Source: Halarcobacter sp. (lineage in GTDB: Bacteria; Campylobacterota; Campylobacteria; Campylobacterales; Arcobacteraceae). From it: a stretch of DNA of 64,000 nt. Position numbers and translations under genes: made by a program. The stretch spans positions 2,720,001 through 2,784,000 of the forward strand of contig OY781089.1 in assembly GCA_963676565.1 (NCBI GenBank), given 5' to 3'. Shown piece after piece: positions 4,884 to 47,744 of the stretch. Every line of letters begins with the position of its first letter. Position 1 is the stretch's first letter. A model generated the notes under the pieces. The model ran no database searches. It saw only the letters and a program-made list of their open reading frames with translations, and had not been told where the DNA came from.

Positions 4884-4991
4884 ATTAATTACTCTTTTAT
4901 TTTATTTTGTAAATATGATTATAGCCTTTGTTATTTTAATTAACGTAAAAGCGTAGGTTTTAACTTTAAGATAGTGTTAATGTTTATTATA

Positions 4992-5017
4992 TATAATATT
5001 ATTCGAACAAATGTTCG
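4992..5017 (+). promoter_or_regulatory. -10 box TATAAT followed by palindromic operator CGAACAAATGTTCG
   Basis: TATAAT at 4992-4997, palindrome at 5004-5017. The same motif recurs at 9127, 30429, 38116, 38383 and 47479. Confidence 0.6.
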
Positions 5018-5167
5018 TATAAAGTTGGTGGAGATTATTTAACTAGTACTCCTTAAATTATATTTAGTATATTTCCCATTAACTTTTTATTTTAGGGTTG
5101 CTTTTTATAGTTTTCATATGGTTATCAAACTCTTTGCAATCCTAATTTTTAGTGTTTAAGGGTATAA

Positions 5168-6310
5168 ATGAATAACAATAAGTCTTATCTGATTATTATA
5201 TTATCAATACTATCAGCTATTGCACCTATTTCTATTGCCACATACCTTCCTTCTATGCCTACAATGGCGGAACACTACAAAGTTAATATATCTGACATAG
5301 AATTAAGTTTATCTATTTTTATGTTTGGATTTTCATTAGGACAGATTTTTGGAGGACCCTTTTCAGATGCAAAAGGAAGAAGATTCTCTTCACTTGTTGG
5401 TCTTTTAGGTTACTCATTTTTTAGTTTTTTAATTACATCTTCAACATCAGTTTATGAATTATGGATATATCGATTCCTAGAAGCATTTTTTGGTGGTTTG
5501 ATTATAGTTAATGCTGCTGCAATTATTAGAGATTTATACAAAGGTAAAGAAGCAGCTAAATATTTTTCTATTCTAGGAAGTTTGAGAACAATAGTTCCTA
5601 TGTTAGCCCCTGCTCTTGGGGCTTTAATTCTATTTTTCTTTACTTGGGAAAAGATATTTATCTTTTTAGGACTTTACTCTATGTTAGTTGCTTTTTTAAT
5701 ATTTAAAGATTTTGAAGAAACATATACTTACTCTAAAAAAAATATTATCCAATCATATTTAATTGTGTTATCCAATAAAAAAGCGATGATAATGATGTTT
5801 GTTCTTGCACTAGGATTTTCTGCTATGTTTTCTATTGTCACCAAATCTTCATTTATATACATCGAATATTTAGGCTTAAGTGTCAATCAATTTGCCTTTT
5901 TTCAAGGCCTTAATTTTGTATTTTTTATGTTAATTGCTGCACTAAATGTAAAATTTTTAAATTATTTTAAACCCAAAAAGATACTTCAATTTGCAATAGT
6001 CACACAAATTATACTTGCATTTCTATTTTTAGTGTTAAATGATTATATAGGATTTATTTTAGTGATATTTTTTATTGTAAGTTATATCTCAATGAATGGT
6101 TTGATTTATGGAAATGCAACAGCACTTATTATGGAAAACTTTCCACAAAATGCAGGTGTAGCTTCTGCTTTAATTGGAGTTTTACAATATGGAACTGCAT
6201 CAATTATCTCATCAATAATTGTTAGTTTTCATTCAAATAGCTTAATTTCTGTAGCACTTGGAATGTTATTTATTTCAAGTGGAGCATTTCTAGTACTAAA
6301 AAAATATTAA
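5168..6310 (+). CDS. Bcr/CflA-family MFS efflux transporter
   Basis: YLPSMP, GQIFGGPFSDAKGRR and NAGVASALIG motifs; about 12 hydrophobic segments. Confidence 0.88.
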   Translation: MNNNKSYLIIILSILSAIAPISIATYLPSMPTMAEHYKVNISDIELSLSIFMFGFSLGQIFGGPFSDAKGRRFSSLVGLLGYSFFSFLITSSTSVYELWIYRFLEAFFGGLIIVNAAAIIRDLYKGKEAAKYFSILGSLRTIVPMLAPALGALILFFFTWEKIFIFLGLYSMLVAFLIFKDFEETYTYSKKNIIQSYLIVLSNKKAMIMMFVLALGFSAMFSIVTKSSFIYIEYLGLSVNQFAFFQGLNFVFFMLIAALNVKFLNYFKPKKILQFAIVTQIILAFLFLVLNDYIGFILVIFFIVSYISMNGLIYGNATALIMENFPQNAGVASALIGVLQYGTASIISSIIVSFHSNSLISVALGMLFISSGAFLVLKKY

Positions 6311-6330
6311 ATTAAAGAAAGGATAAAAAA

Positions 6331-7350
6331 ATGGAATATAGATATATAGGAACAAGTGGACTTAGAGTTACTCCAATTTGTTTAGGAACAATGACATTTG
6401 GAAGAATGGCAACAAAAGAAGAAGCTTTTAAAATCATGGATAAAGCATATGATGCTGGTATCAATTTTTTTGATAATGCAGAGATGTATCCCGTACCTCC
6501 ACGGGCTGATTTAGTTGGTTTATCTGAAGAGATTATGGGTGAATGGATGAAAAGTAAACCAAGAGAATCTTTAATTGTAGCAACTAAGGTTGCAGGTGCA
6601 GCTAATGGAAGATTTGCAGCTCCTGTTAGACATGGATTAACTGCTATTGATAGATTTCATATTGAAAGAGGAATTGAGGGAACTTTAAAAAGACTAAAAA
6701 CTGATTATATTGACCTTTACCAAGTTCACTGGCCAGATACAGTTGTACCATTAGAAGAATCAATGGAGGCAATGGATAGATTAGTTCAAGCAGGAAAAGT
6801 AAGATACATAGGAACTAGTAATGACTCAGCATATGGATTAACAAAAGCAAATGAAATTTCTAAATACAATAAACTAGCTAGATTTCAATCTATTCAAAAT
6901 AACTTCTCACTAAATGAGCCTAGATTTTTTGATGAATTAGCCCATGTTTGTAGAAAAGAAAAAATTTCACTTCTTCCTTATTCACCACTTGCAGGGGGAG
7001 TTTTAACTGGAAAATATCAAGATAGAACTTTGCCTGAAGGTTCTAGATTTAATGAATACAAAGCTTTAAATCTTCCAAGATTGGAAGCAATGAGAAATAG
7101 ATTTATAAATGAAAAAACTTTAAGTACTACAGAAAAATATATGCAAATCGCAAAAGAACATGGTATGAATGTTACAACTTTAGCAGCTGCTTGGAGTAAA
7201 CAATGGGATTTTGTTGCAAGTACAATTATTGGGGTTAGAACTGCCGAACAATTAGATGATATCTTACCAGCTTTAGAACTTACACTAAGTGATGAAATAA
7301 TGGATGCTTGTAAAAAGGTACAACAAGAGATTTTATATCCTATGGGATAA
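6331..7350 (+). CDS. Aldo/keto reductase (Tas-like)
   Basis: CLGTMTFG, DNAEMY, LKTDYIDLYQVHWP and YSPLAGGVLTGKY motifs. Confidence 0.92.
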   Translation: MEYRYIGTSGLRVTPICLGTMTFGRMATKEEAFKIMDKAYDAGINFFDNAEMYPVPPRADLVGLSEEIMGEWMKSKPRESLIVATKVAGAANGRFAAPVRHGLTAIDRFHIERGIEGTLKRLKTDYIDLYQVHWPDTVVPLEESMEAMDRLVQAGKVRYIGTSNDSAYGLTKANEISKYNKLARFQSIQNNFSLNEPRFFDELAHVCRKEKISLLPYSPLAGGVLTGKYQDRTLPEGSRFNEYKALNLPRLEAMRNRFINEKTLSTTEKYMQIAKEHGMNVTTLAAAWSKQWDFVASTIIGVRTAEQLDDILPALELTLSDEIMDACKKVQQEILYPMG

Positions 7351-7352
7351 AT

Positions 7353-7384
7353 AAAAAAAGGATAGCATTAAGCTATCTTTTTTT
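7353..7384. terminator. Bidirectional intrinsic terminator
   Basis: A-tract, GATAGC-ATTAA-GCTATC, T-tract between convergent genes. Confidence 0.7.
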
Positions 7385-8177
7385 AATAGTGTTGAAGTAG
7401 TTTAATAGCTTCTGATGTTTCTTTTGCAGCTTCAATTAAAAGAGGTAATACTTTCTTCTTCAATGTTTCTGTATTTTTATAACTTAAATGGGAACCTATA
7501 TTCATAGCCCCTATCATCTTATTTTCTCTATTATAAATTGGTGCAGCAATTGAAAGAAGACCATCTTCAATCTCCTCTTCAACAATCTGATACCCTTGAT
7601 TTTTTTCATCTAATAACTTTTTATATAAAGTATCAGGGTCTTTTATACTTTTTGATGTGTACTCTTTATAAGGTAATTTCAAAAGATAATTATAAAGCTC
7701 TTTTTCATCCATATGAGACATAAATAATCTTCCTGTTGCAGTATATGCTGCTGGTAGTCTAGAACCAACATGGATACCCTCATTTAAAATTCTTGTTGCA
7801 GGTACTCTCATAATACAAATAACATTTTGTCCATCTAAAATTGAAATAGAACATGATAAGGTACACTCATCAACTACTCTTTTAATATTTTTATATGCAA
7901 TATCTGTCCATGGTAGAGAAGCAAAATAACTATATCCTAACTCTATTACTTTAGGAGTTAAAGAAAAAAAGTTATCATTGTGAGAAACATAACCTAAAGA
8001 TTCCAAAGTTAAAAGAAGTCTTCTAGCACTAGCTCTGGTTATATCAACTTTCTTTGCAACATCAGAAAGGGTCATATTCGTATTTTCGTGATCAAAAGCT
8101 TTTATTACACTAAGACCTTTAATAAAAGCTGTTACTATCTCTTTATTATCAATTTCATTTTCTACTTTTGAAGTCAT
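7383..8177 (-). CDS. IclR-family regulator, PcaR/PobR-like
   Basis: KGLSVIKAF, TRASARRLLLTLESLGYV, LTPKVIELGYSY and VGSRLPA..TATGR motifs. Start at ATG 8177 preferred over TTG 8201. Confidence 0.88.
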   Translation of the reverse strand: MTSKVENEIDNKEIVTAFIKGLSVIKAFDHENTNMTLSDVAKKVDITRASARRLLLTLESLGYVSHNDNFFSLTPKVIELGYSYFASLPWTDIAYKNIKRVVDECTLSCSISILDGQNVICIMRVPATRILNEGIHVGSRLPAAYTATGRLFMSHMDEKELYNYLLKLPYKEYTSKSIKDPDTLYKKLLDEKNQGYQIVEEEIEDGLLSIAAPIYNRENKMIGAMNIGSHLSYKNTETLKKKVLPLLIEAAKETSEAIKLLQHY

Positions 8178-8181
8178 AACT

Positions 8182-9066
8182 TTATTTTTTTTCCTTGGCA
8201 ATTAAAATTCCTCCTGAAATAATAGCTAAAATTCCTATGATTCCCAAATAGCTTGGGAAATCGTCACCTAAAATAAGTCCAATTATCAATGAAAATATGA
8301 TTACAGAATAACCTGTAGCTCCTACAATACCAGCTCGAGTAACTCCATATGCTTTAGTCATATATATCTGCCCTACTGATGCGGTAAATCCAATACCACC
8401 AATTAAAACCCACTCAAAAGTGTTTGGTAATACAAACTCTCCCATCATAAAATCAAAAAATTCACTGTGGTAATTTATTGATAATAACATAGAAGCCAAA
8501 GGAACAATTGAACCTATACCCATAAAACTTAAAACAATCACTCTAGTATCATAATATTTTCTAAGTTCTCTAATACTTGTAAAAGCTAAAGCAGCACATA
8601 CAGCATTTAAAATACCAAAGATATGTGCCTTTTCAAAAACCATTCCATCAGGATTCATAACCATAAACATACCACTAAATCCCAATAATATAGCAAGCCA
8701 ACCTTTGGGTCCAATTTTTTCTTTTAAAAACCACATGGCAAAGATTGCCGTAAAAAGAGGAGACATTCTAGAATATGTAACAGCATCAGCCAGTGAAATA
8801 TTTGCAATATTATAAAAGAAACTCAACATGGCAATAAGACCAATAGCAGCTCTAAAAAATAGTAAAAATGGCTTTCCCCCAGTTTGTTTTAAAGGTGATT
8901 TAAAAAATGTTAACAGTACAATACAAATACCAATAAAATTTCTAAAAAAAACTATCTCAATTGTGGGTAGACTTTCTGCTAAAACTTTAGCCATAGCACT
9001 CATTAAAGCTAAACAAATTGAAGATATCAACATAAATAATACACCTTGATTTATTTGTCTAAGCAC
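8182..9066 (-). CDS. DMT/EamA-family transporter
   Basis: EIVFFR and PLFTAIFA..FLKEK motifs; two-repeat 10-TM layout. Confidence 0.88.
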   Translation of the reverse strand: MLRQINQGVLFMLISSICLALMSAMAKVLAESLPTIEIVFFRNFIGICIVLLTFFKSPLKQTGGKPFLLFFRAAIGLIAMLSFFYNIANISLADAVTYSRMSPLFTAIFAMWFLKEKIGPKGWLAILLGFSGMFMVMNPDGMVFEKAHIFGILNAVCAALAFTSIRELRKYYDTRVIVLSFMGIGSIVPLASMLLSINYHSEFFDFMMGEFVLPNTFEWVLIGGIGFTASVGQIYMTKAYGVTRAGIVGATGYSVIIFSLIIGLILGDDFPSYLGIIGILAIISGGILIAKEKK

Positions 9067-9115
9067 TGAGAAACCTTTTATATTTTTAGGAATTATATTT
9101 GTTTTTTACTTAATA

Positions 9116-9140
9116 TGTTATTATTACGCACAAAAGTTCG
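9116..9140 (+). promoter_or_regulatory. Extended -10 (TGtTATTAT) plus operator CGCACAAAAGTTCG
   Basis: Operator at 9127-9140 lies just downstream of the -10, the same geometry as other promoters in the region. Confidence 0.5.
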
Positions 9141-9162
9141 TTTTTATATAAAAAGGTTACAA

Positions 9163-9594
9163 ATGGAAATATGGAAAAAAAATCTTACAGTGGATGAAAT
9201 AAATGAATTCAGTAAAAATACTGCTGCTGAAAGTTTAGGGATTATAATCACTAATTTGACAAAAAATAGTTTAGAAGGACAAATGCCAGTTAATGAGAAA
9301 ACTTGCCAACCTAGAGGTCTTTTACATGGAGGTGCATCAGCACTAATGATTGAGACTTTAGGAAGTCTAGCTGGATATTTAGCCGCACCCAAAGATGATG
9401 CGATTGTTGGCATGGAAATAAATGCAAACCATATTACAGGGGTAAAAAAAGGAAACTTTGTAAAAGGGATTGCAACGCCTTTACATATAGGTAAAACAAC
9501 TCATGTATGGGAAGTTAAGATTTATGAAAATGACACAAATAAACTTGCTTGTGCGGGAAGAATAACCCTTGCAGTGATAAAAGAAAAGATATAA
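9163..9594 (+). CDS. Hotdog-fold aryl-CoA thioesterase (MenI/EntH/PaaI-like)
   Basis: QPRGLLHGGAS...ETLGS, EINANH and H.GKTTHVW motifs. ATG 9163 follows an AAGG RBS. Confidence 0.88.
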   Translation: MEIWKKNLTVDEINEFSKNTAAESLGIIITNLTKNSLEGQMPVNEKTCQPRGLLHGGASALMIETLGSLAGYLAAPKDDAIVGMEINANHITGVKKGNFVKGIATPLHIGKTTHVWEVKIYENDTNKLACAGRITLAVIKEKI

Positions 9595-9601
9595 AGAAAA
9601 T

Positions 9602-10759
9602 CTAATTTTCTTTATATCTTCCTAATATTAAAAAAGAACTTAATGTTAAGACCAAAATACTTATTGCTAATATAAAAAAATCTTCACTTTTAAAACTTAA
9701 TACAATAGCAGAAACAAAAGATGCCATTCCAAATTGAAGAACACCTGCAACAGAAGAGGCAACACCTGCATTTTTAGAAAAAGAGTTCATAGCTAAAGCC
9801 AAAGAATTACCAAAAATAAATGCCATTAAACCAGTATAACTTATCAAGTAAACCATTGTTTCTATTAAAGTTATATCTTTATAATTTAATAAAAAAAGTA
9901 TACAAATAAAAGTTTGAATTAAAAGTGTTATTTTCATAATTTTTAAAATCTCAAAATGTTTTAATAATGTGATATTAAATTTTGTTAATAACATCAGTGC
10001 TACAAAATGAGAACTAAAATAAAAAGGAAAAAAATCTGTTGAAATACCAAAAGATTCTATATAAATAAAAGATGCCTTTGATATAAAAACAAAAATACCT
10101 GAAAAACTTAATCCCAATACAAACATAGAAATCATGGCTTTTTTGTTAGATAAAACTAAATAAAATGAATTCAAAATATTTTGTTTTTCATTGCTTTTTG
10201 TATTATCTAAATATTTTTGAACGATAAATAAAATGATAAGAGGATATATTGTTAAAAATATAAAAACTCCTTTCCATGGAAAGAAATGGATTATAAAAGC
10301 GCCAATAGCTGGTGCAATTAAAGGAGCTACACTTCTAACTGTACCTATTATTGAAAAAACTTTTGCTGCTTCATTCCCTTTAAACTTATCCCTTACAACG
10401 GCTGAAGAATTTACTAAAACAATACCACCAAAAAATGACTCAAAAAATCTATAAATCCAAATTTCATAAATTGAATGACTAAATATGATTAAGAGACTAA
10501 AAAAAGAGAATCCTATTAAACCATAAATAGAACTACTTCTTCTTCCATAATTATCTGAAATTACTCCACCAAAAATTTGTCCAACTGATAAGCCTATTAA
10601 GAAAATAGCTAAAGATAGTTCAACTTCTTCAAGTGACACACCATATGTGGAAGCAATATCTGGGATAGAAGGGATATATGTATCAATCCCCATTGGACCT
10701 AGTGAGGCTAAGAGTGCTAATAATATAGCTAAATTAACATGATTTGATAACTTAAACAA
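9602..10759 (-). CDS. Bcr/CflA-family MFS efflux transporter (paralog of 5168-6310)
   Basis: IDTYIPSIP, GQIFGGVISDNYGRR and NAGVASS motifs. Confidence 0.88.
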   Translation of the reverse strand: MFKLSNHVNLAILLALLASLGPMGIDTYIPSIPDIASTYGVSLEEVELSLAIFLIGLSVGQIFGGVISDNYGRRSSSIYGLIGFSFFSLLIIFSHSIYEIWIYRFFESFFGGIVLVNSSAVVRDKFKGNEAAKVFSIIGTVRSVAPLIAPAIGAFIIHFFPWKGVFIFLTIYPLIILFIVQKYLDNTKSNEKQNILNSFYLVLSNKKAMISMFVLGLSFSGIFVFISKASFIYIESFGISTDFFPFYFSSHFVALMLLTKFNITLLKHFEILKIMKITLLIQTFICILFLLNYKDITLIETMVYLISYTGLMAFIFGNSLALAMNSFSKNAGVASSVAGVLQFGMASFVSAIVLSFKSEDFFILAISILVLTLSSFLILGRYKEN

Positions 10760-10927: not shown

Positions 10928-13063
10928 TTAATCTAAAACAATTAATGCATCAAGAGCAAAAACACCTTTAGCTTTTGCAACTAAAGGATTAATCTCTACT
11001 TCAGAAATTCTTTCATTTGATACAATCAAATCAGCAATTTTAGTTACTGTTTTTGCAATTGCCTTGATATCTACAGCTTCAGTACCCCTTGCACCTTTCA
11101 ATAATGCTGCAGATTTTAAAGAAGAGATTTCATCAACGATTGCATCAACACCTAAGTCAGGAGTGATTAAACATACATCTTTTAAAACTTCTATCCAAAT
11201 ACCTCCAAGACCAACAAGAACTACTACACCCCATTGTTCATCTCTTCTAGCACCAATTACAATTTCAGCACCTAAATTAGCCATACCTTCAATTAAAATA
11301 CCATCTAATTTAATTCCAGTAGATTCAATACTTGTCATCATTTTATTAAAAGCAACTCTTAATTCATCATCACTTTTAATATTTAACACTACACCACCAG
11401 CATCAGTTTTATGTGCTAATTGTGCAGATTGAGCTTTTAAAACTACAGGATATGACAATTCATTTGCAATTTTGATAGCTTCATCTTCATCTTTTGCTAA
11501 AGCACCTTTTGGAATAGGAATATCAAGTTTTTCTAAAATCTCTTTTGACTTATACTCAGGTACATTTCCTGAATCAAGTTGCGAAATCATATCAATCTTA
11601 ATAATTTCATTTTCCCTTCTTTGTTTAGCTTTATTTCTACAAAGTTTATTAACATTTGATAAGGCTTTCACTGCACTTTCCATTGATTTACCTAATACTA
11701 CACCATTATCTCGAGCTAATGTCATAAACTCTGGCTCATAAACATTTGATTCATCTAAAGGTACATAAATAGCAGGTTTTTCAGGATGTTTTTTCATACT
11801 ATCAATGAAACCATTTAAAAATATACTTTTTGTACCAATATCTTGGTCAGTTGGTAAAACAACTAAGGTAGAACCAATCTTAGGTTCAGTTAATAAAAGA
11901 TCTAGCCCTTTACCAACAAGTTCAGGATCACGTGCAGCTTCAACACCTACATCAAATGGGTTTCTAGCAGGTAAATATTCAGGAATAATATCTTTTAGTT
12001 TTTCTTCAATATCACTTGATAATGCAGCCATAACTAAATTACAATCTTCAAATTGGTCAGTTGCAATTGCGCATACAGCCCCTGAATGTGTCAATAAACC
12101 AACTTCTCCACTTACTGGTTTTGGAAATCTAAGTAATAATTCACTTAAAGTAATTAATTCATCTAAAGAATTAACCATAGCAACACCAGCGTTAAGAAGT
12201 TTTGTTTCCATTAGAGTATAATCACCTGTTAAAGAACCAGTATGTGATTGAGTAATACTTCTTGAAGCTTCACTTCTTCCTGAATGCATTAAAATTACAT
12301 TTTTATTAACAGCGTTTGCTCTTTTAACAGCAGATAGTAAATTTTGTGGATTTTTAATCTCTTCAGCATATATTGCAATTGCTCCTGTATATTCATCTTC
12401 AACAAAGAAATCAATTAAATCAGATAATTCAATATCTGCTTGATTTCCAATTGTTACAGAATAACTTGTAGGAACTGCTCTTTTACCCAATGATTGACCA
12501 ATAAATAAACCAATTCCACCACTTTGAGTAATAATTGCAACTCCTTTTGAACCATTTTTATCAAATGGAACTTGCTTTGGCAAATCAATTAATACAAGAT
12601 GAAAATTGTCAACATAATTAAAATAACCAATACAATTTGGTCCAACTAATCTAATGTTGTTTTCATGGGCATATTTTCCAATTTTATCCTGTAAAGCGTG
12701 ACCTTCCTCACCTAATTCTGCAAAACCAGCACTCATACAAACAACCGTTTTAACATCAATAGTTTTCAAATCAACTATTGCATCATATACACTTGCTGCA
12801 GGGATTGCTAAAATTCCTAAATCAATACCTTTTGGTAAGTCATTAAGATCTGTCTTAATTTCAATACCATCAATATCTGCCTTGTTTCTACCAAGTAAAT
12901 TTATCTCACCTTCATAACCATTTAGTTTTAAAGTTTTGATAATATTTCTTGCACTAGAACTAGGTTTTGCAGAGGCTCCTAAGATTACAACTGATTTTGG
13001 ATTCAATAATGAAGAGATAGATTCAACTGTCTCTTCATTAGTTCTTTTTATTGCTTTATTCAA
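10928..13063 (-). CDS. ADP-forming acyl-CoA synthetase (acetate--CoA ligase family), probable hydroxycinnamate/feruloyl-CoA synthetase
   Basis: GPNCIG, QSGG, SHTGSL phospho-His motif and C-terminal ATP-grasp (HKTDAGGV, EINPL). Substrate inferred from co-location with HCHL. Confidence 0.82.
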   Translation of the reverse strand: MNKAIKRTNEETVESISSLLNPKSVVILGASAKPSSSARNIIKTLKLNGYEGEINLLGRNKADIDGIEIKTDLNDLPKGIDLGILAIPAASVYDAIVDLKTIDVKTVVCMSAGFAELGEEGHALQDKIGKYAHENNIRLVGPNCIGYFNYVDNFHLVLIDLPKQVPFDKNGSKGVAIITQSGGIGLFIGQSLGKRAVPTSYSVTIGNQADIELSDLIDFFVEDEYTGAIAIYAEEIKNPQNLLSAVKRANAVNKNVILMHSGRSEASRSITQSHTGSLTGDYTLMETKLLNAGVAMVNSLDELITLSELLLRFPKPVSGEVGLLTHSGAVCAIATDQFEDCNLVMAALSSDIEEKLKDIIPEYLPARNPFDVGVEAARDPELVGKGLDLLLTEPKIGSTLVVLPTDQDIGTKSIFLNGFIDSMKKHPEKPAIYVPLDESNVYEPEFMTLARDNGVVLGKSMESAVKALSNVNKLCRNKAKQRRENEIIKIDMISQLDSGNVPEYKSKEILEKLDIPIPKGALAKDEDEAIKIANELSYPVVLKAQSAQLAHKTDAGGVVLNIKSDDELRVAFNKMMTSIESTGIKLDGILIEGMANLGAEIVIGARRDEQWGVVVLVGLGGIWIEVLKDVCLITPDLGVDAIVDEISSLKSAALLKGARGTEAVDIKAIAKTVTKIADLIVSNERISEVEINPLVAKAKGVFALDALIVLD

Positions 13064-36020: not shown

Positions 36021-36027
36021 TATCTTC

Positions 36028-39907: not shown

Positions 39908-40430
39908 CTATTTTTCCTCCTTTATGTAAAAATATTTGGAATGCTAAAACAACTGCCCATAAAGCAAGTGAAATAATCCCTGGTGCATAAAATGGCCATT
40001 CTGGCCAACCTAATGTAACTGAAACTGCACCATCATCATATGATTCAATCATTCCCATAAACATTAGAATTGTTAAAAAAATCACAAAAACTAAAGTACA
40101 AGTTAACCACAACATATCAAAATATTGTTGCACTTTTGGTGAGAATTTATTTGCAAAAAAGTCTACAGCTACATGTCCCCTTTGAGCTTGTGCCCAAGGG
40201 AAAAACATTAAAGCAATACAACTTGTCAATAATCTAACCAAATCCTCATAACCAGAAAGTGCTGATACATTAGAATCAAAAATTCTAGCCACTTTATCTA
40301 AACCAAATGCTGCTATATTAACCACTGTAGTTGTTACTACAATAAAAAGTAAAATACCAGCTAAATAAACCCACCAAAGGCATATTCTTTTTAGCTTCCC
40401 CTCAAAATATAATCTTAATCTAGCTTGCAT
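39900..40430 (-). CDS. dctQ: TRAP transporter small permease
   Basis: Four TM segments, RGHVAVD motif; lies between dctP and dctM. Confidence 0.9.
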   Translation of the reverse strand: MQARLRLYFEGKLKRICLWWVYLAGILLFIVVTTTVVNIAAFGLDKVARIFDSNVSALSGYEDLVRLLTSCIALMFFPWAQAQRGHVAVDFFANKFSPKVQQYFDMLWLTCTLVFVIFLTILMFMGMIESYDDGAVSVTLGWPEWPFYAPGIISLALWAVVLAFQIFLHKGGKIDG

Positions 40431-40443
40431 TATAAAACCTTAT

Positions 40444-41472
40444 TTATTTGCTATTTTTAGCAATAGCCTTTCTAGCTTCATCTACTAGTTTTTGTCCATC
40501 AATACCTTTTGAAGTTGCTTCTTCAATCCATTTTTGAACTACTTGCTCACCTATTTTGTTAAATTTAGCCATCTCTTCGTTGCTTAATTTGTGAACTTTT
40601 CCACCTTTTGATTCATTTTGCATCTTCTTCCCTGGTTCTTCAACATCCATCCAAATTTGCCCAACTTTTTTAACCATATCCATATCTACACTATCAATTA
40701 AGATTTTTTGTAAATCTTTATCTAATGATTTAAATCTATCTTCATTCATAAGTAACATAAATACTGAAGTACCAAATCTTTCCCCATTTGGTCCCTCAAC
40801 TGAATGTTTAGTTAAATTATGAAACTTAAGAGGAGGAAACACTTCAAAAGGGATAAACCCTCCATCAACAACACCTTTTGATAAAGCTTGAGGAAGTGCA
40901 GGTAAAGGCATACCTACTGGCTCTGCACCCAATGCAGATATATACCATCCTGCAGTTCTTGATGGAGCTCTAAGTTTTAAACCTTTTAAATCTTCAACAC
41001 TAGTTACCTCTTTTTCAGTTGTATGAATTGCATTACCGGCAGCTGTATAAACCATTAAAGGTTTAATTTTGTCAAAATCATCTTTAATCAAATCCATATT
41101 TTCTTTAATTGCTATTGCAGTAGCAAGTGAATCACCAATATGTACAGTTGGTAACTCAAAAACTTCAGTTCTTGGGAATACACCAGGAGTATATCCAGGA
41201 AGTGTCCAAACGATATCTGCAACACCATCTCTAACTTGTTTATATAACTCAGGTGGTTTCCCTCCCATAGTCATCGATGGGAAAATTTCAATTTTTAATT
41301 TTCCTTTAGATGCTTCTTCTATTTTTTTAGCCCATGGCTCTAAAAATTTAGTTTGAAGAGGAGCTTTTGGACTTAAGAAGTGATGAACTGTCAATGTCTC
41401 CGCTGCATAAGCTGAACCTGCTAATAACAATGTACTAACAAGAATGCTTCCCTTTTTAATTAGATTTTTCAT
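40444..41472 (-). CDS. dctP: TRAP transporter substrate-binding protein (cognate with dctQM)
   Basis: DctP motifs; in operon with dctQM downstream of the lig genes. Confidence 0.92.
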   Translation of the reverse strand: MKNLIKKGSILVSTLLLAGSAYAAETLTVHHFLSPKAPLQTKFLEPWAKKIEEASKGKLKIEIFPSMTMGGKPPELYKQVRDGVADIVWTLPGYTPGVFPRTEVFELPTVHIGDSLATAIAIKENMDLIKDDFDKIKPLMVYTAAGNAIHTTEKEVTSVEDLKGLKLRAPSRTAGWYISALGAEPVGMPLPALPQALSKGVVDGGFIPFEVFPPLKFHNLTKHSVEGPNGERFGTSVFMLLMNEDRFKSLDKDLQKILIDSVDMDMVKKVGQIWMDVEEPGKKMQNESKGGKVHKLSNEEMAKFNKIGEQVVQKWIEEATSKGIDGQKLVDEARKAIAKNSK

Positions 41473-41501
41473 GTCTTTTCCCTTTTTTCACTAATCTTTT
41501 A

Positions 41502-42440
41502 TTATTTCATTGCTTTTTCTAAAGCATCTAGAACTTTCATTGCCGATAATGCTTGTTGTACACTTGCATTTGGTTCACGTCCATCTTTAATTGCTGAGAT
41601 AAACTCTCTATCTTGTAACTCAATTCCATTCATAGAGACTGCAACATTTGAAACATCAATTTGCTCTTCTTTTCCCGTAAATAAATCATCATATCTAGCT
41701 ATATAAGTTCCATTATCACAGATATATCTAAAGAAAGTTCCTAATGGCCCATCATTATTAAAAGATAATGATAATGTACAAATTGCTCCTGAAGCAGTTT
41801 TAAGTCCAATACTCATATCCATTGCAATACCAAGTTCAGGATGAATTGGTCCTTGCATTGCTTGAACATCAACAATCTCCTCACCTGTTTGGTAAGCAAA
41901 TAAATCAACTGTATGACAAGCATGGTGCCATAATAAGTGGTCAACCCATGATCTTGGCTCACCTAAGGCATTTGTATTTGTTCTTCTGAAGAAATAAGTT
42001 TGAACATCCATTTGTTGAATTCTTAACTCACCAGCAGTAATTTTATTGTGAACATATTGATGAGATGGATTAAATCTTCTTGTATGTCCAGCCATAGCAA
42101 TAAGTCCTGTCTCTTTTTGTTTATCAACAATTGCTTGTGCATCTGCTAATGAATCTGCCATTGGAATTTCAATCATTACATGTTTTCCTGCATCCATTAA
42201 AGCGATTGCTTGTTGTGCATGAATTTGAGTTGGACTAGTAATAATTGCTGCATCAAAATCATATTTTAAAGCATCTTCTAAAGTAAGTACATAATTTGGA
42301 ACATTAAACTGTTCAGCTACTTTTTTTGTACCCTCTTCTCTTCTTCCAACTAAGCAAACAACCTCAGCATCCTCAATATTTGATAGAGCATCTAAATGTT
42401 TTTTTCCAAAAGCTCCATTTCCTACAACACAAATTTTCAT
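41502..42440 (-). CDS. ligC: 4-Carboxy-2-hydroxymuconate-6-semialdehyde dehydrogenase
   Basis: GAFGKKHLD, GHTRRFNPSHQ, RSW.DHLLWHHA.HTVDLF and SMNGIELQDREF motifs. Confidence 0.95.
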   Translation of the reverse strand: MKICVVGNGAFGKKHLDALSNIEDAEVVCLVGRREEGTKKVAEQFNVPNYVLTLEDALKYDFDAAIITSPTQIHAQQAIALMDAGKHVMIEIPMADSLADAQAIVDKQKETGLIAMAGHTRRFNPSHQYVHNKITAGELRIQQMDVQTYFFRRTNTNALGEPRSWVDHLLWHHACHTVDLFAYQTGEEIVDVQAMQGPIHPELGIAMDMSIGLKTASGAICTLSLSFNNDGPLGTFFRYICDNGTYIARYDDLFTGKEEQIDVSNVAVSMNGIELQDREFISAIKDGREPNASVQQALSAMKVLDALEKAMK

Positions 42441-43289
42441 TTAGTCCTCCTTATTTTCTAAAATTGTTAATGAATAATTAGTATTTGAAATTGGTACATG
42501 CATAAATCTATAAACTTCATTTACCTCTTTAGTTAATGCACCTCTCATAGTTAACCACATAATTGCTTCTGCACCTTCACTACCTGTTTCTCTAATTAAT
42601 TCAGTTACTGAGATGTCTTTTATTGATTCTGGATCTTTTACCAAATTATCTAACCACCAAGTATCGTATTCGACATTAATTAAACCTGCTCTTGGTCCTT
42701 GTAATTGATGTGATAATCCACCTGTTCCCATAATTGCAACATTGATATCTTCAGGGTAAGACTCAACAGCTTCTCTAATAGCTTTTCCTAAGTTGTAACA
42801 TCTATTTCCCTTTGGTTGAGGATATTGAACAACACCAACATACAATGGAATAAACTTACAAGGCCACTCTTCTAAATCTTCACCAAATGCTAAAGAAGCA
42901 GGAACAGAAAAACCATGGTCTACATCTAATTCAAATGACATCGCAACATCAAACTCTTTTTCATTGAAGTGTTCTGCTATATGACAAGATAAAGCAGAGT
43001 CCCCTTTAAAAGTTGGAACTTTTCTTCTTCCATATCCTTCATCAGCTGGTAAATACTCATCAGCAATACCAAGTCCAAAAGGGATAACATTTTTTAATGA
43101 GAAGTTAGAACCATGGTCATTATAAACAATAATACAAACATCAGGTTTTTTCTCTTTCATCCATGCTCTTAAAGGTTTAATCCCTTCATTAAAAGGTTCC
43201 CAATATGGACCAGTCATCTCTTTATTGTCCATTTTAAGCATGATTGTTGGTATGTGTGAAGTACCTATTCCTCCGATTATCTTAGCCAT
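42441..43289 (-). CDS. ligB: Protocatechuate 4,5-dioxygenase beta subunit
   Basis: TSH.P, VYNDH, PADEGYG, DVDHG, GTGGLSHQLQGPRAGLIN and GSEG.E motifs. Start 43289. Confidence 0.92.
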   Translation of the reverse strand: MAKIIGGIGTSHIPTIMLKMDNKEMTGPYWEPFNEGIKPLRAWMKEKKPDVCIIVYNDHGSNFSLKNVIPFGLGIADEYLPADEGYGRRKVPTFKGDSALSCHIAEHFNEKEFDVAMSFELDVDHGFSVPASLAFGEDLEEWPCKFIPLYVGVVQYPQPKGNRCYNLGKAIREAVESYPEDINVAIMGTGGLSHQLQGPRAGLINVEYDTWWLDNLVKDPESIKDISVTELIRETGSEGAEAIMWLTMRGALTKEVNEVYRFMHVPISNTNYSLTILENKED

Positions 43290-43707
43290 TTTTCTTCTCC
43301 TCATTCTCTTTTATACTTCTATTTCCCTCAATTGGTCTTCCACCATTAATCATCATTTGTTGGAACTCTTCAGTTGTCATTTTATTTGGTTCTTCAGACA
43401 TCATAGCTCCGGCTTGTTGCATATGTAAACCTAGAGTTGCAGCAATCTTCCATAAATAATAGATATTCCCACCTAATTCAAGAAGGTAATTTAAATCTTT
43501 TCTTCTAATACCATCTTTCATCTCTTCTGTTAATTTAGGGAATCTACTCATATATTCTTCTTCATCAGCTAAAAAAGCTTCCCTTGCATCAGGTTTATTT
43601 AAAGTGTCACAAAATTTATTTAATTCATAACCTTTTACACAAGTTTGTAAGTCAAATACAATTGTTCCAGGTATATCTTTATAGTCTCTTTCTTCATAAC
43701 TTCCCAT
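43282..43707 (-). CDS. ligA: Protocatechuate 4,5-dioxygenase alpha subunit
   Basis: DIPGT.VF, KGY.LN.FC, GGNIY and MM..GGR..EGNRS motifs. Confidence 0.92.
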   Translation of the reverse strand: MGSYEERDYKDIPGTIVFDLQTCVKGYELNKFCDTLNKPDAREAFLADEEEYMSRFPKLTEEMKDGIRRKDLNYLLELGGNIYYLWKIAATLGLHMQQAGAMMSEEPNKMTTEEFQQMMINGGRPIEGNRSIKENEEKKNG

Positions 43708-43726
43708 AATTTAATCCCTTTCTTTT

Positions 43727-44761
43727 TTAATTAAAATGTTTTTCAATATGTTGATTAATTCTAGGATAAACATTTCTAATATTATCTTCGAATATCATCT
43801 TTTTCTTTTCATCACTAATCTTAGCAGCATCGATGTATCGTTTTGTATCATCAAAATAATGACCTGTTAATGGGTCAATTCCTCTAACTGCTCCAATCAT
43901 TTCAGACGCAAATAAAATATTTTCTGTAGGAACTAAATCTAATAATAAATCAATACCTTCTTGGTGATATACACAAGTATCAAAATAGATATTATTTTCA
44001 ATAATGTTATTTAAATTATCTAATTCTAACATATCACAAAGACCTCTAAATCTTCCCCAATGATAAGGCACTGCTCCACCACCATGTGGGATAACAAATT
44101 TTAACTCTGGAAAGTCTTTAAATAGTGTTTTACTCATCATAAGTTGAGTAAAAGCAGTTGTATCTGCACCTAAATAGTGTGATGATGTTGCATGAAATAC
44201 TGGGTTACAACACCCACTTACATGAATCATTGCTGGAACACCATATTCAACCATCTTTTCATATAATGGATACCAATATTTATCATCTAGCTTTGGAGCA
44301 TCATTCCAATATCCCCCAGATGGATCTGGATTTAAATTACATCCAATAAATCCATACTCTTTTACAACTCTTTCAAGTTCAGCTGCACTTGCAGTCATAT
44401 CTGAACCTGGAGATTGTGGAAGTTGTGCAACACCCACAAAGTTTTTAGGAAAAATATCAACTATTCTTGCAATAAGTTCATTACAATGTTCAGTCCAATT
44501 TTTACTAGTACTTTGATTTCCTATGTGGTGTCCCATCCAAGATGCTCTTGGAGAGAAAATAGTTAAGTCAGTACCTCTTTCTTGTTGTAATTTCAACTGA
44601 TTTTTTTCAACACTTTCTCGCAAAGCCTCATCAGTAATATTAATAACACCCTTTGCATGTTGTACTAAAGGATCAAAACTTAACTCTTTTTTTTGTTGTT
44701 CTCTATAATCACCTAACTCTTTAGGTCCTGTTGTATAATGTCCATGACAATCAATAATCAT
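43727..44761 (-). CDS. ligJ: 4-Oxalomesaconate hydratase
   Basis: MIIDCHGHYTT, FSPRAS.M.HH, NPDPSGG, PHGGGAVPYHWGRFRG and FASEMIGAVRGIDP motifs. Confidence 0.95.
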   Translation of the reverse strand: MIIDCHGHYTTGPKELGDYREQQKKELSFDPLVQHAKGVINITDEALRESVEKNQLKLQQERGTDLTIFSPRASWMGHHIGNQSTSKNWTEHCNELIARIVDIFPKNFVGVAQLPQSPGSDMTASAAELERVVKEYGFIGCNLNPDPSGGYWNDAPKLDDKYWYPLYEKMVEYGVPAMIHVSGCCNPVFHATSSHYLGADTTAFTQLMMSKTLFKDFPELKFVIPHGGGAVPYHWGRFRGLCDMLELDNLNNIIENNIYFDTCVYHQEGIDLLLDLVPTENILFASEMIGAVRGIDPLTGHYFDDTKRYIDAAKISDEKKKMIFEDNIRNVYPRINQHIEKHFN

Positions 44762-44762
44762 A

Positions 44763-45482
44763 TTAAGATTCTCCTTTCAATTGAGCTTCATCATCATAAT
44801 ATTTAAATCCTGCTGCTTCTAAACCTGGTCTCATTTTGTATAAATCAAGTCCTAAAACACCAGCTTCAAACTTCTCTCTTTTTTCACCTTCAAAATCTTC
44901 TCTTTTTTGAGCTGCATCTGCAACTATTTTTGCATCTTCTTGTGCAACAATACAAATCCCATCATCATCAGCAACTACAACATCACCAGGATTTACAATT
45001 TGTCCTGCACAAACAATAGGAATATTCACTGAACCTAATGTATTTTTTACTGTACCTCTAATACTAACTGCTTTTGACCATACTGGAAAATCCATTTCTT
45101 CTAAATCTTTAGTATCTCTAACTCCACCATCAATCACAAGTCCTTTAACACCTTGTGCAATAGCAGAAGTTGCTAATAAATCTCCAAAGAAACCATCAGT
45201 ATTTGGTGTTGTACAAGCAGCAATTATAATATCACCTGGTTGTGCTAACTCCATAGCTACATGAAGCATCCAGTTGTCACCTGGCTGAAGTAATACTGTA
45301 ATTGCACTTCCAGCTATTCTTTTCCCTTTAAGTACAGGTCTAAGTTCAGGATGTAATTCCCCTACTCTTTTTTGTGCTTCATGAACTGTTGCACTTCCAA
45401 ACTTTTCTAATCTTTCAATCTCTTCTTTTGGCGCTCTATTTATATTTTTTACAGCTACACCTAAATGTGGTTTTCTAATCAT
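44763..45482 (-). CDS. ligK: 4-Carboxy-4-hydroxy-2-oxoadipate aldolase
   Basis: [35 protein letters not shown] and LGLD.Y.MR motifs. Start 45482. Confidence 0.95.
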
Positions 45483-45483
45483 C

Positions 45484-46356
45484 TTAATCCTCCCATCCAT
45501 ATAATCTAGCTGGATTATCAACTAAAATTTTCTTTTGTAAAGCCGGGTCTGGAACCATTAATGGAAATAAATCCATTAAGTCTCCATCATTTGGCATATA
45601 TTTTTTAATATTTGGGTGAGGACAATCTGTTCCCCAAAGGATTCTATCTGGTGCAATTGCCACTAACTTTTGCGCATATGGAATCGCATCATAAAATGGT
45701 GGCTCTGGTGAAATTCTTTCAGCACAAGAGATTTTAACCCACCAATTTTCCCTTTCCATAAATTTACATAAAATTTTAAATGCTTCTTGCTCAACACCCT
45801 CTTTTGTTGGGACTCTACCCATATGGTCAACTACAATTGTAATGTCAAATTTTGCAAAGAAATCTTCATATTTAATTATATCTTCTGCATTTACATGAAT
45901 AACTAAATGCCAACCCAATGGAATTACTTTATTTATAACTCTTTCCATCATCTCTAAATCTGGCGCTCCACCTAAATGTGTAACAAAATTAAACCTAACA
46001 CCTTTAACACCATTTTCATCTAAATATTTAAAATCTTCATCTGTAAAAGTGTCATCTGCCATACAAACACCTTTATATCTTTTAGGATCATTTTTTATAG
46101 CATCTAACATTGCTGTATTATCTTTACCATGGCAAGAAGCTTGAACTAAAACAGCTCTAGAGATTCCAATAGTATCATGCATCTTTCTTAAAAGTGCCTC
46201 TGGTGTATCAGGTGGCCAGTATGTTGCCTTTTGTGAATAAGGAAACACTTCATGTGGTCCAAATACATGACAATGGGCATCACAAGCATTTTCCATAGCT
46301 TTAAATACTGGCGTCTTAGTATTTCTATCTGGCGCCATACAAGTTTTCTTTTCCAA
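45484..46356 (-). CDS. ligI: 2-Pyrone-4,6-dicarboxylate lactonase
   Basis: [37 protein letters not shown] and LVDNP.RLY motifs. Confidence 0.92.
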
Positions 46357-46373
46357 ATTAAACTCCTTCTTTT

Positions 46374-47456
46374 TTAATTTAAATCATCTGGATGTGGATA
46401 AGCCACACCTTTACTTAATAATCTTGCTGTTCTTAATAAGCCAGCTTTTTTAATACTTAATTCGTCATTTATTTTTTCACTTGTTAATTCGACTGTAAAC
46501 TCACCACTTGGATGTTCAATAGTTAAATTAGCAATTGGCATATTTTTTACTTTTATAATATCACTAGTAACACACTCATCATATAAACAAGCACTTGCAA
46601 CAGAAACTGCTCCAAGTACTCCAATTGCTGCATGACAATTGTGAGGTATAAATGTTCGTGTGTTTATGCTTCCACCATTTTTAGGAGCTGAAACAATTGT
46701 CATTTTTGGTACAACTTTTTTTGATACTTCCCCAAGATTCATCATTGGACCAACTTCTAATCTTAATTCTTCTAATGTTTTTCTTAATTCAGAATTTTTG
46801 CTTAACTCTTCACAACTTTCATATCCTGTAATTCCTAATTGATTTGCATTAATCAAAACTACAGGCATACCATTATCAATACATGTAATATCAATATCAT
46901 TTACAATATCTTTTTTATTGCCCGTTGGAAAAAGTGAACCACAAACAGATCCTGCAACATCAAGATAATTACAAATAATTGGTGCTGATGTTCCAGGAAC
47001 TCCATCAATTCTTGCATCACCATCAAATTTTAATTTTTTGTTTGGTGTTTGCATTACAAGTTCACAAATATTGTTACTATTAATCATATTGACTTTTATC
47101 GTTGTCATATCTTCTGTTGGTAATACCATCTTATTTTCAATAGCAAAAACACCAACACCTGATAATATATTTCCACAATTAGGAGAACTGTCAACTCTAT
47201 TTTCACCAACAACTACTTGTACAAAAAGAAAATCTATATCACAATTTTCTTTTTCTGATTTACTTACAATAGCAACCTTACTAGTAAGGGGATTCGCGCC
47301 TCCCAAACCATCAATTTGTCTAGAGTCACGACCAACAATACTTAATATGATTTCATCTCTAAGGTTTTCATCCTGAGGTAAATCATTTTTATCAAAATAA
47401 ATACCCTTTGAACTACCACCTCTTATTTGCATATATGGTATTGATTCATAACTCAT
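46374..47456 (-). CDS. ligU: 4-Oxalomesaconate tautomerase/isomerase (PrpF family)
   Basis: RGGSSKG, RQIDGLGGA..LTSKVA, NCGNIL, DNGMP, FIPH.CH.AIG, EHPSG and RTAR motifs. Confidence 0.93.
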   Translation of the reverse strand: MSYESIPYMQIRGGSSKGIYFDKNDLPQDENLRDEIILSIVGRDSRQIDGLGGANPLTSKVAIVSKSEKENCDIDFLFVQVVVGENRVDSSPNCGNILSGVGVFAIENKMVLPTEDMTTIKVNMINSNNICELVMQTPNKKLKFDGDARIDGVPGTSAPIICNYLDVAGSVCGSLFPTGNKKDIVNDIDITCIDNGMPVVLINANQLGITGYESCEELSKNSELRKTLEELRLEVGPMMNLGEVSKKVVPKMTIVSAPKNGGSINTRTFIPHNCHAAIGVLGAVSVASACLYDECVTSDIIKVKNMPIANLTIEHPSGEFTVELTSEKINDELSIKKAGLLRTARLLSKGVAYPHPDDLN

Positions 47457-47478
47457 TTTTAACCTTTAATTTAATTTT

Positions 47479-47571
47479 CGAACATTTGTACAGAAACTAT
47501 AGCATTGGAAAATTTAAAGTACGCTTAACGGACATAAGTTCATTTTAAGTTAAGATAGCAATAGCATAGCA
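47479..47571 (-). promoter_or_regulatory. Modular promoter copy 4 (lig operon)
   Basis: CGAACATTTGTACA 47479-47492; extended -10 TGcTATAGT 47496-47504; box GTACGCTTAACGGAC 47519-47533; TAGCA-N6-TAGCA 47556-47571. Confidence 0.75.
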
Positions 47572-47744
47572 TTATAAAATTAGTTTATGAGAAAAAGAAA
47601 ATTAAGTTATTAATATAGATTTATTTAGAAGATATTAATATTTAAAAAATCACTTATGAGATACTATTTTATGGTCTTTAATTAGAAATTTAAAAATACT
47701 TTTTGTGTTTATTTAGTTTATAACTACTTTTATAAAAAGATATG

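Follow-up and report, generated by a model that had tools for sequence, protein, structure and literature searches.

Overall organization of the locus

The analyzed window is a stretch of 64,000 nucleotides, positions 2,720,001-2,784,000 of the single 3,340,668-base contig OY781089.1 (GCA_963676565.1) of Halarcobacter sp., and coordinates without a prefix are counted from its first letter. It contains 66 open reading frames (ORFs) of at least 100 amino acids (aa); 59 were scanned against Pfam, and the 40 located between 5168 and 48618 against NCBIfam. A block of catabolic genes spans positions 5168-47456 (~43 kb), flanked by nadE (2991-4883) on the left and by djlA (47815-48618) on the right. 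Judged by its gene content, the block is very probably a functional accessory island of a marine Halarcobacter-type bacterium, through which plant-type phenolic acids would be imported, converged on protocatechuate (PCA), and broken down along the canonical 4,5-(meta)-cleavage pathway.

An earlier, sequence-only reading of this stretch had named a series of aromatic-degradation genes, together with uptake genes of the tripartite ATP-independent periplasmic (TRAP) type, a porin, six regulators, and the nadE/djlA flanks. All of them are present where it had placed them, according to matches to Pfam, NCBIfam, and solved structures. The regulators in the block are exactly six (two IclR, two MarR, one AraC, and one TetR). 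The study genome is referred to as G000, and other G-numbers denote comparison genomes.

The protocatechuate 4,5-cleavage operon

The right-hand part of the block is one operon on the reverse strand (38510-47456), with the gene order ligU-I-K-J-A-B-C followed by DctP4, DctQ, and DctM. Curated cut-offs are exceeded by LigU, the oxalomesaconate (OMA) tautomerase (46374-47456; NF033377, 489.7 bits, cut-off 440), LigK, the 4-carboxy-4-hydroxy-2-oxoadipate (CHA) aldolase (44763-45521; TIGR02798, 360.8 bits, cut-off 304.5), LigA (43282-43707; TIGR02792, 114.1 bits, cut-off 108.6), and LigB (42441-43304; NF009903, 343.7 bits, cut-off 317). The assignments of the other enzymes come from solved proteins: the best match of LigI, the 2-pyrone-4,6-dicarboxylate (PDC) hydrolase (45484-46356), is 4d8l (E 1.1e-64), that of LigJ, the OMA hydratase (43727-44761), is 6dxq (E 7.7e-145), and LigC, the 4-carboxy-2-hydroxymuconate semialdehyde (CHMS) dehydrogenase (41502-42440), matches PmdC 9azo (E 1.3e-141). 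All seven pathway enzymes are found with strong matches to solved or curated proteins, and the complete lig set of the sequence-only reading is confirmed in full.

LigA and LigB, both above their curated cut-offs, together form an extradiol dioxygenase of class III with two subunits. When LigB is aligned with its Sphingobium counterpart (1b4u_B, E 9.5e-90), the residues His12, His61, His195, and Glu242, which we take to be the iron ligands and the catalytic base, are the same in the island protein.

The lig system of Sphingobium sp. SYK-6 and the pmd system of Comamonas comprise the same seven enzymes, and from this established pathway it follows that LigAB, LigC, LigI, LigU, LigJ, and LigK would convert PCA to pyruvate and oxaloacetate. 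The island differs from both in its host, a member of the Campylobacterota, and in the fusion of a single ligU-I-K-J-A-B-C operon to a TRAP transporter. LigR and PmdR are LysR-type regulators, whereas no LysR regulator was found in the Pfam scans of the island, and the promoter carries an IclR-type box instead (see below).

The TRAP genes at the end of the operon encode a binding protein (DctP4, 40444-41472) and two membrane components (DctQ, 39900-40430, and DctM, 38510-39907). As four DctP genes stand against a single DctQ and a single DctM in the block, shared membrane components are implied. Uptake would thus involve a porin of the OprD type and then four binding proteins, presumably of differing specificity, delivering to one DctQM permease. 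TarPQM of Rhodopseudomonas palustris is a TRAP transporter for lignin-derived aromatic acids. In the island, DctP-family proteins are likewise found beside hydroxycinnamate and hydroxybenzoate genes, but four binding proteins accompany a single DctQM pair. The porin (36784-38091, reverse strand) scores 40.7 bits against OprD and 62.9 bits against the Opr porin family NF033923. Its ORF start as listed (38172) falls within one of the promoter element copies described below (copy 3); the true start is likely the ATG at 38091, which opens a signal-peptide-like sequence.

Enzymes converging on protocatechuate

The hydroxycinnamate side-chain module (10928-18539, all on the reverse strand) consists of an ADP-forming acyl-CoA synthetase of the ATP-grasp type (10928-13063; domains CoA_binding_2, Succ_CoA_lig, and ATP-grasp_5), an aldehyde dehydrogenase (13085-14533; Aldedh, 541.8 bits), the TRAP binding protein DctP1 (14544-15575), a hydroxycinnamoyl-CoA hydratase-lyase (HCHL; 15659-16486; NF006588, 430.9 bits, cut-off 276), and an acyl-CoA-dehydrogenase-like protein of 673 aa (16518-18539). 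MarR1 (18703-19188, forward strand) is divergent from it. The order of the module is the same in G086, G093, G034, G043, and G051, and G101 has it without the ligase; the six relatives with HCHL thus all have the aldehyde dehydrogenase, and five of the six have the CoA ligase. The CoA ligase would activate hydroxycinnamates, HCHL would cleave them to a benzaldehyde and acetyl-CoA, and the adjacent aldehyde dehydrogenase would oxidize the aldehyde; by these steps p-coumarate would be converted to 4-hydroxybenzoate, and caffeate directly to PCA.

In comparison with Fcs/Ech/Vdh of Pseudomonas and FerA/FerB of SYK-6, the island has an HCHL above the equivalog cut-off with the CoA ligase and the aldehyde dehydrogenase close by. 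In Pseudomonas putida an acyl-CoA-dehydrogenase-like gene lies next to the hydroxycinnamate genes, as it does here. In contrast to Fcs, which is AMP-forming, the island ligase is an ADP-forming ATP-grasp enzyme. In this it would resemble FerA of SYK-6 (Masai et al. 2002), a likeness for which our literature search returned no confirming paper. A further difference is the gene for a TRAP binding protein within the operon.

Hydroxybenzoates would enter through two hydroxylases. PobA, the 4-hydroxybenzoate 3-monooxygenase (23523-24716, reverse strand; TIGR02360, 613.9 bits, cut-off 538.7), is divergent from IclR2 (24859-25623, forward strand) and would convert 4-hydroxybenzoate to PCA. MobA, a 3-hydroxybenzoate 4-hydroxylase-like protein (34152-36047; NF006144, 891.5 bits, cut-off 560), heads an operon on the reverse strand (30632-36047) and would produce PCA from 3-hydroxybenzoate. 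It aligns over residues 10-628 with the Comamonas 3-hydroxybenzoate hydroxylase 2dkh (E 1.3e-205), a score that does not tell 4- from 6-hydroxylation, and far more weakly with phenol hydroxylases (E 9.4e-106). The operon continues with DctP3 (33096-34136), an alpha/beta hydrolase (32373-33092), the VanA-like gene discussed in the next section, and a TetR regulator (30632-31288), with intergenic gaps of 15, 3, -28, and 56 nt, respectively. MarR2 (36326-36748, forward strand) is divergent from MobA.

Further on the reverse strand, an HpaB-family two-component flavin monooxygenase (28912-30372; HpaB_N 264.4 bits, HpaB 123.8 bits) is paired with a flavin mononucleotide (FMN) reductase as its partner (28400-28909; FMN_red, 100.3 bits). 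The HpaB-like enzyme reaches 294.2 bits against TIGR02309, under the cut-off of 480.2, and because of this its substrate was left without assignment; together with the reductase it probably adds an ortho-hydroxyl group to a 4-hydroxyphenyl acid. A homoprotocatechuate route for this enzyme by means of a second LigB-family gene (L002, G000 C1:797359-798054) was considered and rejected. This gene encodes a relative of YgiD, similar to 4,5-dihydroxyphenylalanine (DOPA) extradiol dioxygenases (170.7 bits, cut-off 233), and its neighbors, which encode a MarR regulator and a protein of the YceI family, have no relation to the island.

As predicted from these genes, the routes that require no demethylation, from p-coumarate and caffeate, 4-hydroxybenzoate, and 3-hydroxybenzoate, are complete on paper.

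The VanA-like Rieske oxygenase

The fourth gene of the MobA operon (31345-32400, reverse strand) encodes a VanA-family Rieske oxygenase with both domains expected of the family (VanA_C, 155.2 bits, and Rieske, 69.3 bits), which may O-demethylate vanillate or a related methoxy-benzoate. The gene named vanA in the sequence-only reading is thus supported as to its domains, but not as to a VanAB system. The protein reaches no NCBIfam vanillate-demethylase equivalog, and its closest solved relative is not a vanillate enzyme but DdmC (E 2.8e-44), the oxygenase of the three-component dicamba demethylase. The reductase domains PF00175 and PF00970 (NAD_binding_1 and FAD_binding_6) gave 0 matches each in the complete G000, while in the control genomes they were found in 11 of 14 and 9 of 14, respectively; G000 has only free-standing small 2Fe-2S (Fer2) ferredoxin frames. 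In the absence of a VanB-type reductase the gene was not filed as VanAB, with which it shares the Rieske and VanA_C catalytic domain. It differs from VanA of that system also in overlapping the alpha/beta hydrolase gene, and the two are found together in 6/6 relatives having the VanA-like gene.

These features raise the question of whether the island is limited to H-type, non-methoxylated phenolics (p-coumarate, caffeate, 4- and 3-hydroxybenzoate, PCA), with the VanA-like protein acting on another substrate or being idle. In that case the principal guaiacyl monomers of lignin, ferulate and vanillate, would escape mineralization, which would alter the label of a lignin-monomer island and leave the core pathway standing. 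The missing reductase domains, the likeness to DdmC, the lack of an equivalog match, and the constant company of the hydrolase all favor such a restriction. On the other hand, the Rieske domain is intact and the VanA_C score substantial, and the protein is 77-96% conserved across genera, which indicates that the gene is under selection. DdmC-type enzymes work with a separate ferredoxin, for which the small 2Fe-2S frames of G000 could be candidates, and HCHL pathways usually serve ferulate too. We regard the restriction to H-type substrates as a serious possibility, though not as the one to be expected. Of the ferulate/coumarate funnel put forward by the sequence-only reading, the part carried by HCHL and PobA is complete on paper, and the ferulate/vanillate branch is without a recognizable reductase partner; since VanB is lacking, vanillate demethylation and ferulate mineralization are putative.

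In the shorter island of G106 a flavoprotein with the FAD_binding_4/FAD-oxidase_C pair is observed (L026:5640-7193), which is not present in G000. This domain pair is that of enzymes of the vanillyl-alcohol-oxidase and p-cresol-methylhydroxylase type.

A promoter element shared within the island

A 105-nt element is common to four intergenic regions, upstream of LigU, the porin, MobA, and the HpaB-like gene. A profile was built from these copies, and an nhmmer search of the whole genome returned 4 strong copies, all inside the island (E 2e-22 to 2e-26), with the next match at E 6e-4; the shared custom promoters anticipated from the sequence alone are borne out by this result. All copies are on the reverse strand. 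Copy 1 (30425-30530, E 2.3e-22) precedes the HpaB-like gene, with the box GTGCGTTAAGCGAAC at 30469-30483 and a palindrome at 30430-30441. Copy 2 (36154-36258, E 2.6e-23) lies between MobA and MarR2, with the box at 36197-36211. Copy 3 (38112-38216, E 1.6e-25) is upstream of the porin (box 38156-38170, palindrome 38117-38128). Copy 4 (47474-47579, E 2.1e-26) is upstream of LigU and ends 18 nt before its ATG; its box is at 47519-47533, the TG-extended -10 TATAGT at 47496-47501, and the palindrome at 47480-47491.

Read in the direction of the gene, the element contains TGCTAT-N5-TGCTAT, GAAC-N4-GTTCGTTAAGCGAAC, a TG-extended -10 (TGTTATAGT), and a palindrome of the GAACAAATGTTC type. The 15-nt box is found 4 times in the window (0.47 expected), in 4/4 element copies, and the palindrome 5 times (0.75 expected). 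The palindrome GAACAAATGTTC is present also at 5005-5016, at the left edge of the island, upstream of the first gene. The lig-TRAP, porin, MobA, and HpaB operons would thus be controlled by one promoter design, in which a PcaR-like box covers the -35 region, the TG-extended -10 comes next, and the GAAC-N4-GTTC palindrome is located at the predicted start site.

In PMC12455658, the PcaR operator of Pseudomonas putida is given as GTTCGATAATCGCAC, and the island box GTTCGTTAAGCGAAC is identical to it at 12 of 15 positions. The likeliest candidate binder of the box is IclR1 (7383-8201, reverse strand), a regulator nearest to the PcaR/PcaU/PobR subfamily (TIGR02431, 261.5 bits, cut-off 284.75). Unlike in the PcaR/PcaU/PobR systems, the box would govern a 4,5-cleavage regulon and not the beta-ketoadipate pathway, and the TGCTAT-N5-TGCTAT repeats and the second palindrome are additions to the PcaR promoter layout. 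MarR2 was rejected as the general binder of the element because G101, G034, G043, and G051 keep the element without MarR2.

In the islands of relatives, 22 copies of the element were detected at E <= 1e-5. It is found upstream of LigU in 10/10 relatives, and upstream of MobA, HpaB, and the porin wherever those genes exist. The distance to the LigU start is 11-19 nt in G000 and in all 10 relatives, and 19-115 nt before the other genes. In the three reduced islands described below only the 3' part is matched (from model position 22-42 onward), and in the reduced island of G254 the element was not found.

About 100 nt of non-coding sequence, conserved across genera and containing inverted repeats, could also represent a structured RNA leader, for example a ligand-sensing 5' untranslated region, and not a promoter/operator module of DNA. 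The Rfam scan of the window, however, returned no family above the gathering score. The predicted TG-extended -10 lies within the element, ~40 nt before the start codon; with this position, and with the element ending 11-19 nt before LigU, most of the element would be untranscribed. The element core is identical to a known IclR-family operator at 12 of 15 positions, and the matching of the 3' part only in reduced islands is a modular pattern that fits protein-binding sites. An RNA leader is thus distinctly improbable, and the element is treated here as promoter/operator DNA.

Distribution and genomic context

LigB was found in 11 of 184 Arcobacteraceae species genomes, from 5 of 22 genera. When the phylum was sampled evenly, 3 of 401 genomes had LigB, and of the 377 sampled outside the family 1 had it. 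The regions around LigB (27.6-60 kb) from the 10 other carriers were compared with 51 window proteins by tblastn. The order ligU-I-K-J-A-B-C-DctPQM, together with PobA and IclR1, is kept in 10/10 of them. G086, G093, G101, G034, G043, and G051 share further genes in the same order (porin, MobA, DctP, hydrolase, VanA-like), and the same six genomes also keep HCHL, the acyl-CoA-dehydrogenase-like gene, and the aldehyde dehydrogenase in order. G108, G164, and G065 have a reduced island of 14 kb, and G106 is intermediate. A reduced form with conserved lig order is found also in G254, from another Campylobacterales family, in a context of 38.8% GC.

The nadE/djlA flanks are shared only by G086 and G106 (GyrB identity 99% and 98%), so the synteny between these genes, which the sequence-only reading had proposed to compare, holds for two carriers, while 8/10 have the island elsewhere. 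The neighbors in these eight are, for example, catalase-ankyrin genes, a methyl-accepting chemotaxis protein with heat shock protein 90, arsenic resistance genes, and two-component systems. In the congeners G104 and G105, which lack LigB, djlA and nadE are 4.9 and 4.7 kb apart in the opposite order, separated by a GDSL lipase and an ABC/FtsX transporter and with no island genes. A clean empty insertion site between nadE and djlA could not be defined. The block is an accessory island, a syntenic unit located at differing chromosomal sites.

In respect to mobility, no integrase or transposase families were found in the Pfam scans of the 59 window ORFs (flanking direct repeats were not searched for), and a search of the window for tRNA genes gave none. 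Of the marks of a mobile island, variable presence among relatives is observed, and an integrase or transposase with a tRNA target is not. The earlier statement that mobility genes are absent is upheld for the window, which does contain a strain-specific insert (see below). An IS3-type transposase (rve, HTH_Tnp_1) lies beside the LigU end in G108 (L033:10874-12058) and is the sole mobility gene at any island border. A catalase followed by a 160-aa ankyrin-repeat protein is seen near the LigU end in G034 (L034:6302-8213), G043 (L039:12049-13960), and G106 (L025:3963-5874), in two genera.

Age and origin of the island

The identities of GyrB and LigB to those of G000 are, respectively, 99 and 99% in G086, 98 and 92% in G106, 90 and 79% in G101, 88 and 89% in G093, 84 and 86% in G034, 84 and 85% in G043, about 85 and 83% in G051, 84 and 71% in G164, 84 and 70% in G065, and 79 and 86% in G108; LigC is 80-98% identical in the 10 relatives. 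The island proteins have diverged to an extent comparable to GyrB, which indicates that the island is old. The sequence-only reading had called it an old, integrated regulon: its age is consistent with these values, but the island is accessory and occupies another chromosomal context in 8/10 relatives. It would be old within the Arcobacteraceae, patchy, and retained as a syntenic unit.

The similar order of divergence and the lack of integrases at the G000 borders would also be expected if the family ancestor had possessed the island and passed it on by strictly vertical descent, the patchiness being due to repeated loss only. The ranks by GyrB and LigB, however, disagree for G101 and G108, so inheritance was not purely vertical. 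In addition, the flanking genes differ in 8/10 relatives, the IS3-type transposase abuts the G108 island, and losses would be needed in 173 of 183 other species. In the case of G254, GyrB is 69% identical to that of G000, yet LigB is 73% and LigC 83%, values which suggest transfer between families. Strictly vertical descent is for these reasons considered unlikely.

The genome records with the most similar LigB (83-92% identity) are titled Halarcobacter, Arcobacter, or Aliarcobacter, by which the host is a member of the Arcobacteraceae of a Halarcobacter-type genus, in agreement with the Arcobacter-family origin assigned earlier. A protein search with LigB listed 120 relatives. Among the matches listed, the named LigBs above 66% identity are those of a Sulfurospirillum, a metagenome-assembled genome (MAG) labeled Campylobacteraceae, and a MAG labeled Proteobacteria, followed by Parasalinivibrio, Vibrio, and Enterovibrio (61-65%) and Marinomonas and Pseudomonas (60%). 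The nearest named relatives outside the Campylobacterota, and the nearest named gammaproteobacterial ones, are thus 61-65% identical among these matches. In a quick maximum-likelihood tree (135 rows, midpoint root, most rows being unnamed metagenome proteins), all Campylobacterota fall into one 46-row clade with a Shimodaira-Hasegawa-like approximate likelihood-ratio test (SH-aLRT) support of 100, with Vibrionaceae on the neighboring side. The island would accordingly derive from a single Campylobacterota-specific LigB lineage, the nearest named relatives of which, among the matches listed, are marine Vibrionaceae.

A recent import from Proteobacteria, an assembly artifact, or contamination has to be weighed as well, as the chemistry is typical of Proteobacteria and LigB is restricted to the few carriers in the family. 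The lig segment is moreover the GC-richest part of the island (0.33, the 97.6th percentile of the 5-kb windows of the genome). The GC content of the island as a whole (0.305) is close to that of the genome (0.284), as expected from the earlier description of the genes as AT-rich like their surroundings, and its 5-kb windows span the 31st to the 97.6th percentile. G000 is 99.97% complete with 1.12% contamination in one contig, which makes a chimera very unlikely. Ten further Arcobacteraceae genomes carry the same island; they represent 5 genera, and three of them are at single-contig or chromosome level. The island-specific promoter element is conserved across carriers, and both the distance to LigBs outside the phylum and the single Campylobacterota clade point away from a recent donor. 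The probability of chimerism or of recent import from outside is very low, to the point of being negligible, and the island is regarded as a resident of the Arcobacteraceae.

Functional interpretation

The catabolic role proposed for the island depends on substrates, regulation, expression, and growth that are predicted from the genes, and several observations weigh against it. Three of the enzymes (aldehyde dehydrogenase, CoA ligase, and HpaB-like protein) are below every equivalog cut-off, and their substrates are assigned from gene context alone. The VanA-like protein is closest to DdmC in a genome with neither PF00175 nor PF00970, and the use of ferulate or vanillate may fail. In the case of the regulation, IclR1 scores below the PcaR/PcaU/PobR cut-off and is a putative binder of the box, and the -10 and start-site assignments are predictions read off the DNA. 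As to the history, G101 is nearer to G000 than G034 by GyrB (90 and 84%) and further by LigB (79 and 86%), loss and transfer are not separable from these identities, and the LigB tree is a quick, midpoint-rooted one in which one member of the clade is labeled only as Proteobacteria bacterium.

Six enzymes of the island require oxygen: PobA, MobA, the HpaB-like and VanA-like enzymes, LigAB, and an alpha-ketoglutarate dioxygenase. The sequence-only reading had stressed the contrast with a largely microaerophilic group. Arcobacters tolerate air and G000 encodes two heme-copper oxidase catalytic subunits, so this contrast is weaker than it had been stated.

The oxygenase-dependent breakdown of lignin-type aromatics is established for Proteobacteria and Actinobacteria, and Campylobacterota are usually described as oxidizers of sulfur, hydrogen, and organic acids. 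In the literature searched, no characterized pathway for protocatechuate or lignin monomers was found for Arcobacter, Halarcobacter, or the Arcobacteraceae. According to PMC10469889, Arcobacter was enriched on spruce lignin in coastal lignocellulose-enrichment metagenomes, and genes of aerobic G-, H-, and S-type pathways and of PCA ring cleavage were assigned to it. The novelty claimed earlier for the group holds for a characterized pathway, but for whole communities the general idea is already published; neither the island nor its distribution or promoter design was found in the literature searched. PMC10512730 was discarded as ecological support, as it mentions the Arcobacteraceae only as presumed users of organic acids in marsh sediment amended with diesel.

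The known chemistry is unchanged by the island, which would represent a canonical pathway in an unusual lineage, carried as an old, conserved accessory unit with its own regulatory design. A conserved island of 35-43 kb with its own promoter design, and a LigB clade with many metagenomic members, point to a differing role for the group, in which some Arcobacteraceae may turn over plant phenolics directly where oxic and anoxic zones meet, for instance in salt marshes and coastal sediments. Cultured relatives exist, and the proposal is open to direct tests of growth, induction, and PDC formation. As compact parts, the island further provides a lig pathway in a single operon together with a TRAP importer, genes of low GC content, and a switch of the IclR type.

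No more than a lead on habitat comes from 20 public runs of 9 studies that contain part of the lig-TRAP stretch (38000-47900). One of them, in which 0.77 of the sampled words are present, is labeled as a salt marsh metagenome; several others are deposited under coded organism names.

Other genes of the island

The module beside PobA (19222-23512, reverse strand) comprises a YitT membrane protein (19222-19827), a class II aldolase/adducin-like protein (19831-20613), the alpha-ketoglutarate dioxygenase (20620-21534), DctP2 (21543-22646), and an HpaA-like AraC regulator (22661-23512). The best Protein Data Bank match of the aldolase-like protein is 3ocr, and the NovR decarboxylase is a distant match (E 3e-18). 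The dioxygenase is nearest to the (R)-phenoxypropionate/alpha-ketoglutarate dioxygenase 6d1o (E 5.2e-63), and its match to TauD is weaker (E 2.3e-43). The pair of dioxygenase and aldolase-like protein is found near PobA in 6/10 relatives, including all three reduced islands. One idea is that it converts a 4-hydroxyphenyl acid to 4-hydroxybenzoate by alpha-hydroxylation and oxidative decarboxylation.

A more far-reaching proposal, which as a whole we hold to be rather doubtful, is that the Arcobacteraceae own an ancient protocatechuate 4,5-cleavage regulon and, in the sediments of coasts and salt marshes, consume plant phenolics with the aid of oxygen, and that the island in addition encodes two undescribed biochemistries. 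The first would be a VanA-family Rieske O-demethylase with a donor other than an FNR-type reductase, drawn from the Campylobacterota flavodoxin/ferredoxin pool or provided by the island FMN reductase. In the second, the dioxygenase and the NovR/CloR-like protein would turn a 4-hydroxyphenyl or aryl-ether acid into 4-hydroxybenzoate.

The left arm of the island (5168-10759) encodes a major facilitator superfamily (MFS) transporter (5168-6310, forward), an aldo-keto reductase (6331-7350, forward), IclR1, an EamA transporter (8182-9066, reverse), a hotdog thioesterase (9115-9594, forward), and a second MFS transporter (9602-10759, reverse). In the relatives the island IclR1 is present in 10/10 and EamA in 9/10. 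The Rfam scan and the tRNA search mentioned above covered this arm with the rest of the window.

Between IclR2 and the FMN reductase lies a strain-specific insert (25667-28311), with a GC content of 0.234 (26001-28000). It encodes a tetratricopeptide repeat (TPR) protein of 659 aa (25667-27646, reverse strand), followed on the forward strand by a small ORF (27845-28024) and a ParE-family toxin ORF (28018-28311; ParE_toxin, 52.3 bits). No counterpart of the TPR protein was found in the regions of 12 relatives, and the ParE-type toxin-antitoxin pair is likewise without a counterpart in relatives. The position looks like a variable slot for defense or addiction genes; in G086, the equivalent spot is occupied by a DUF4062 protein.

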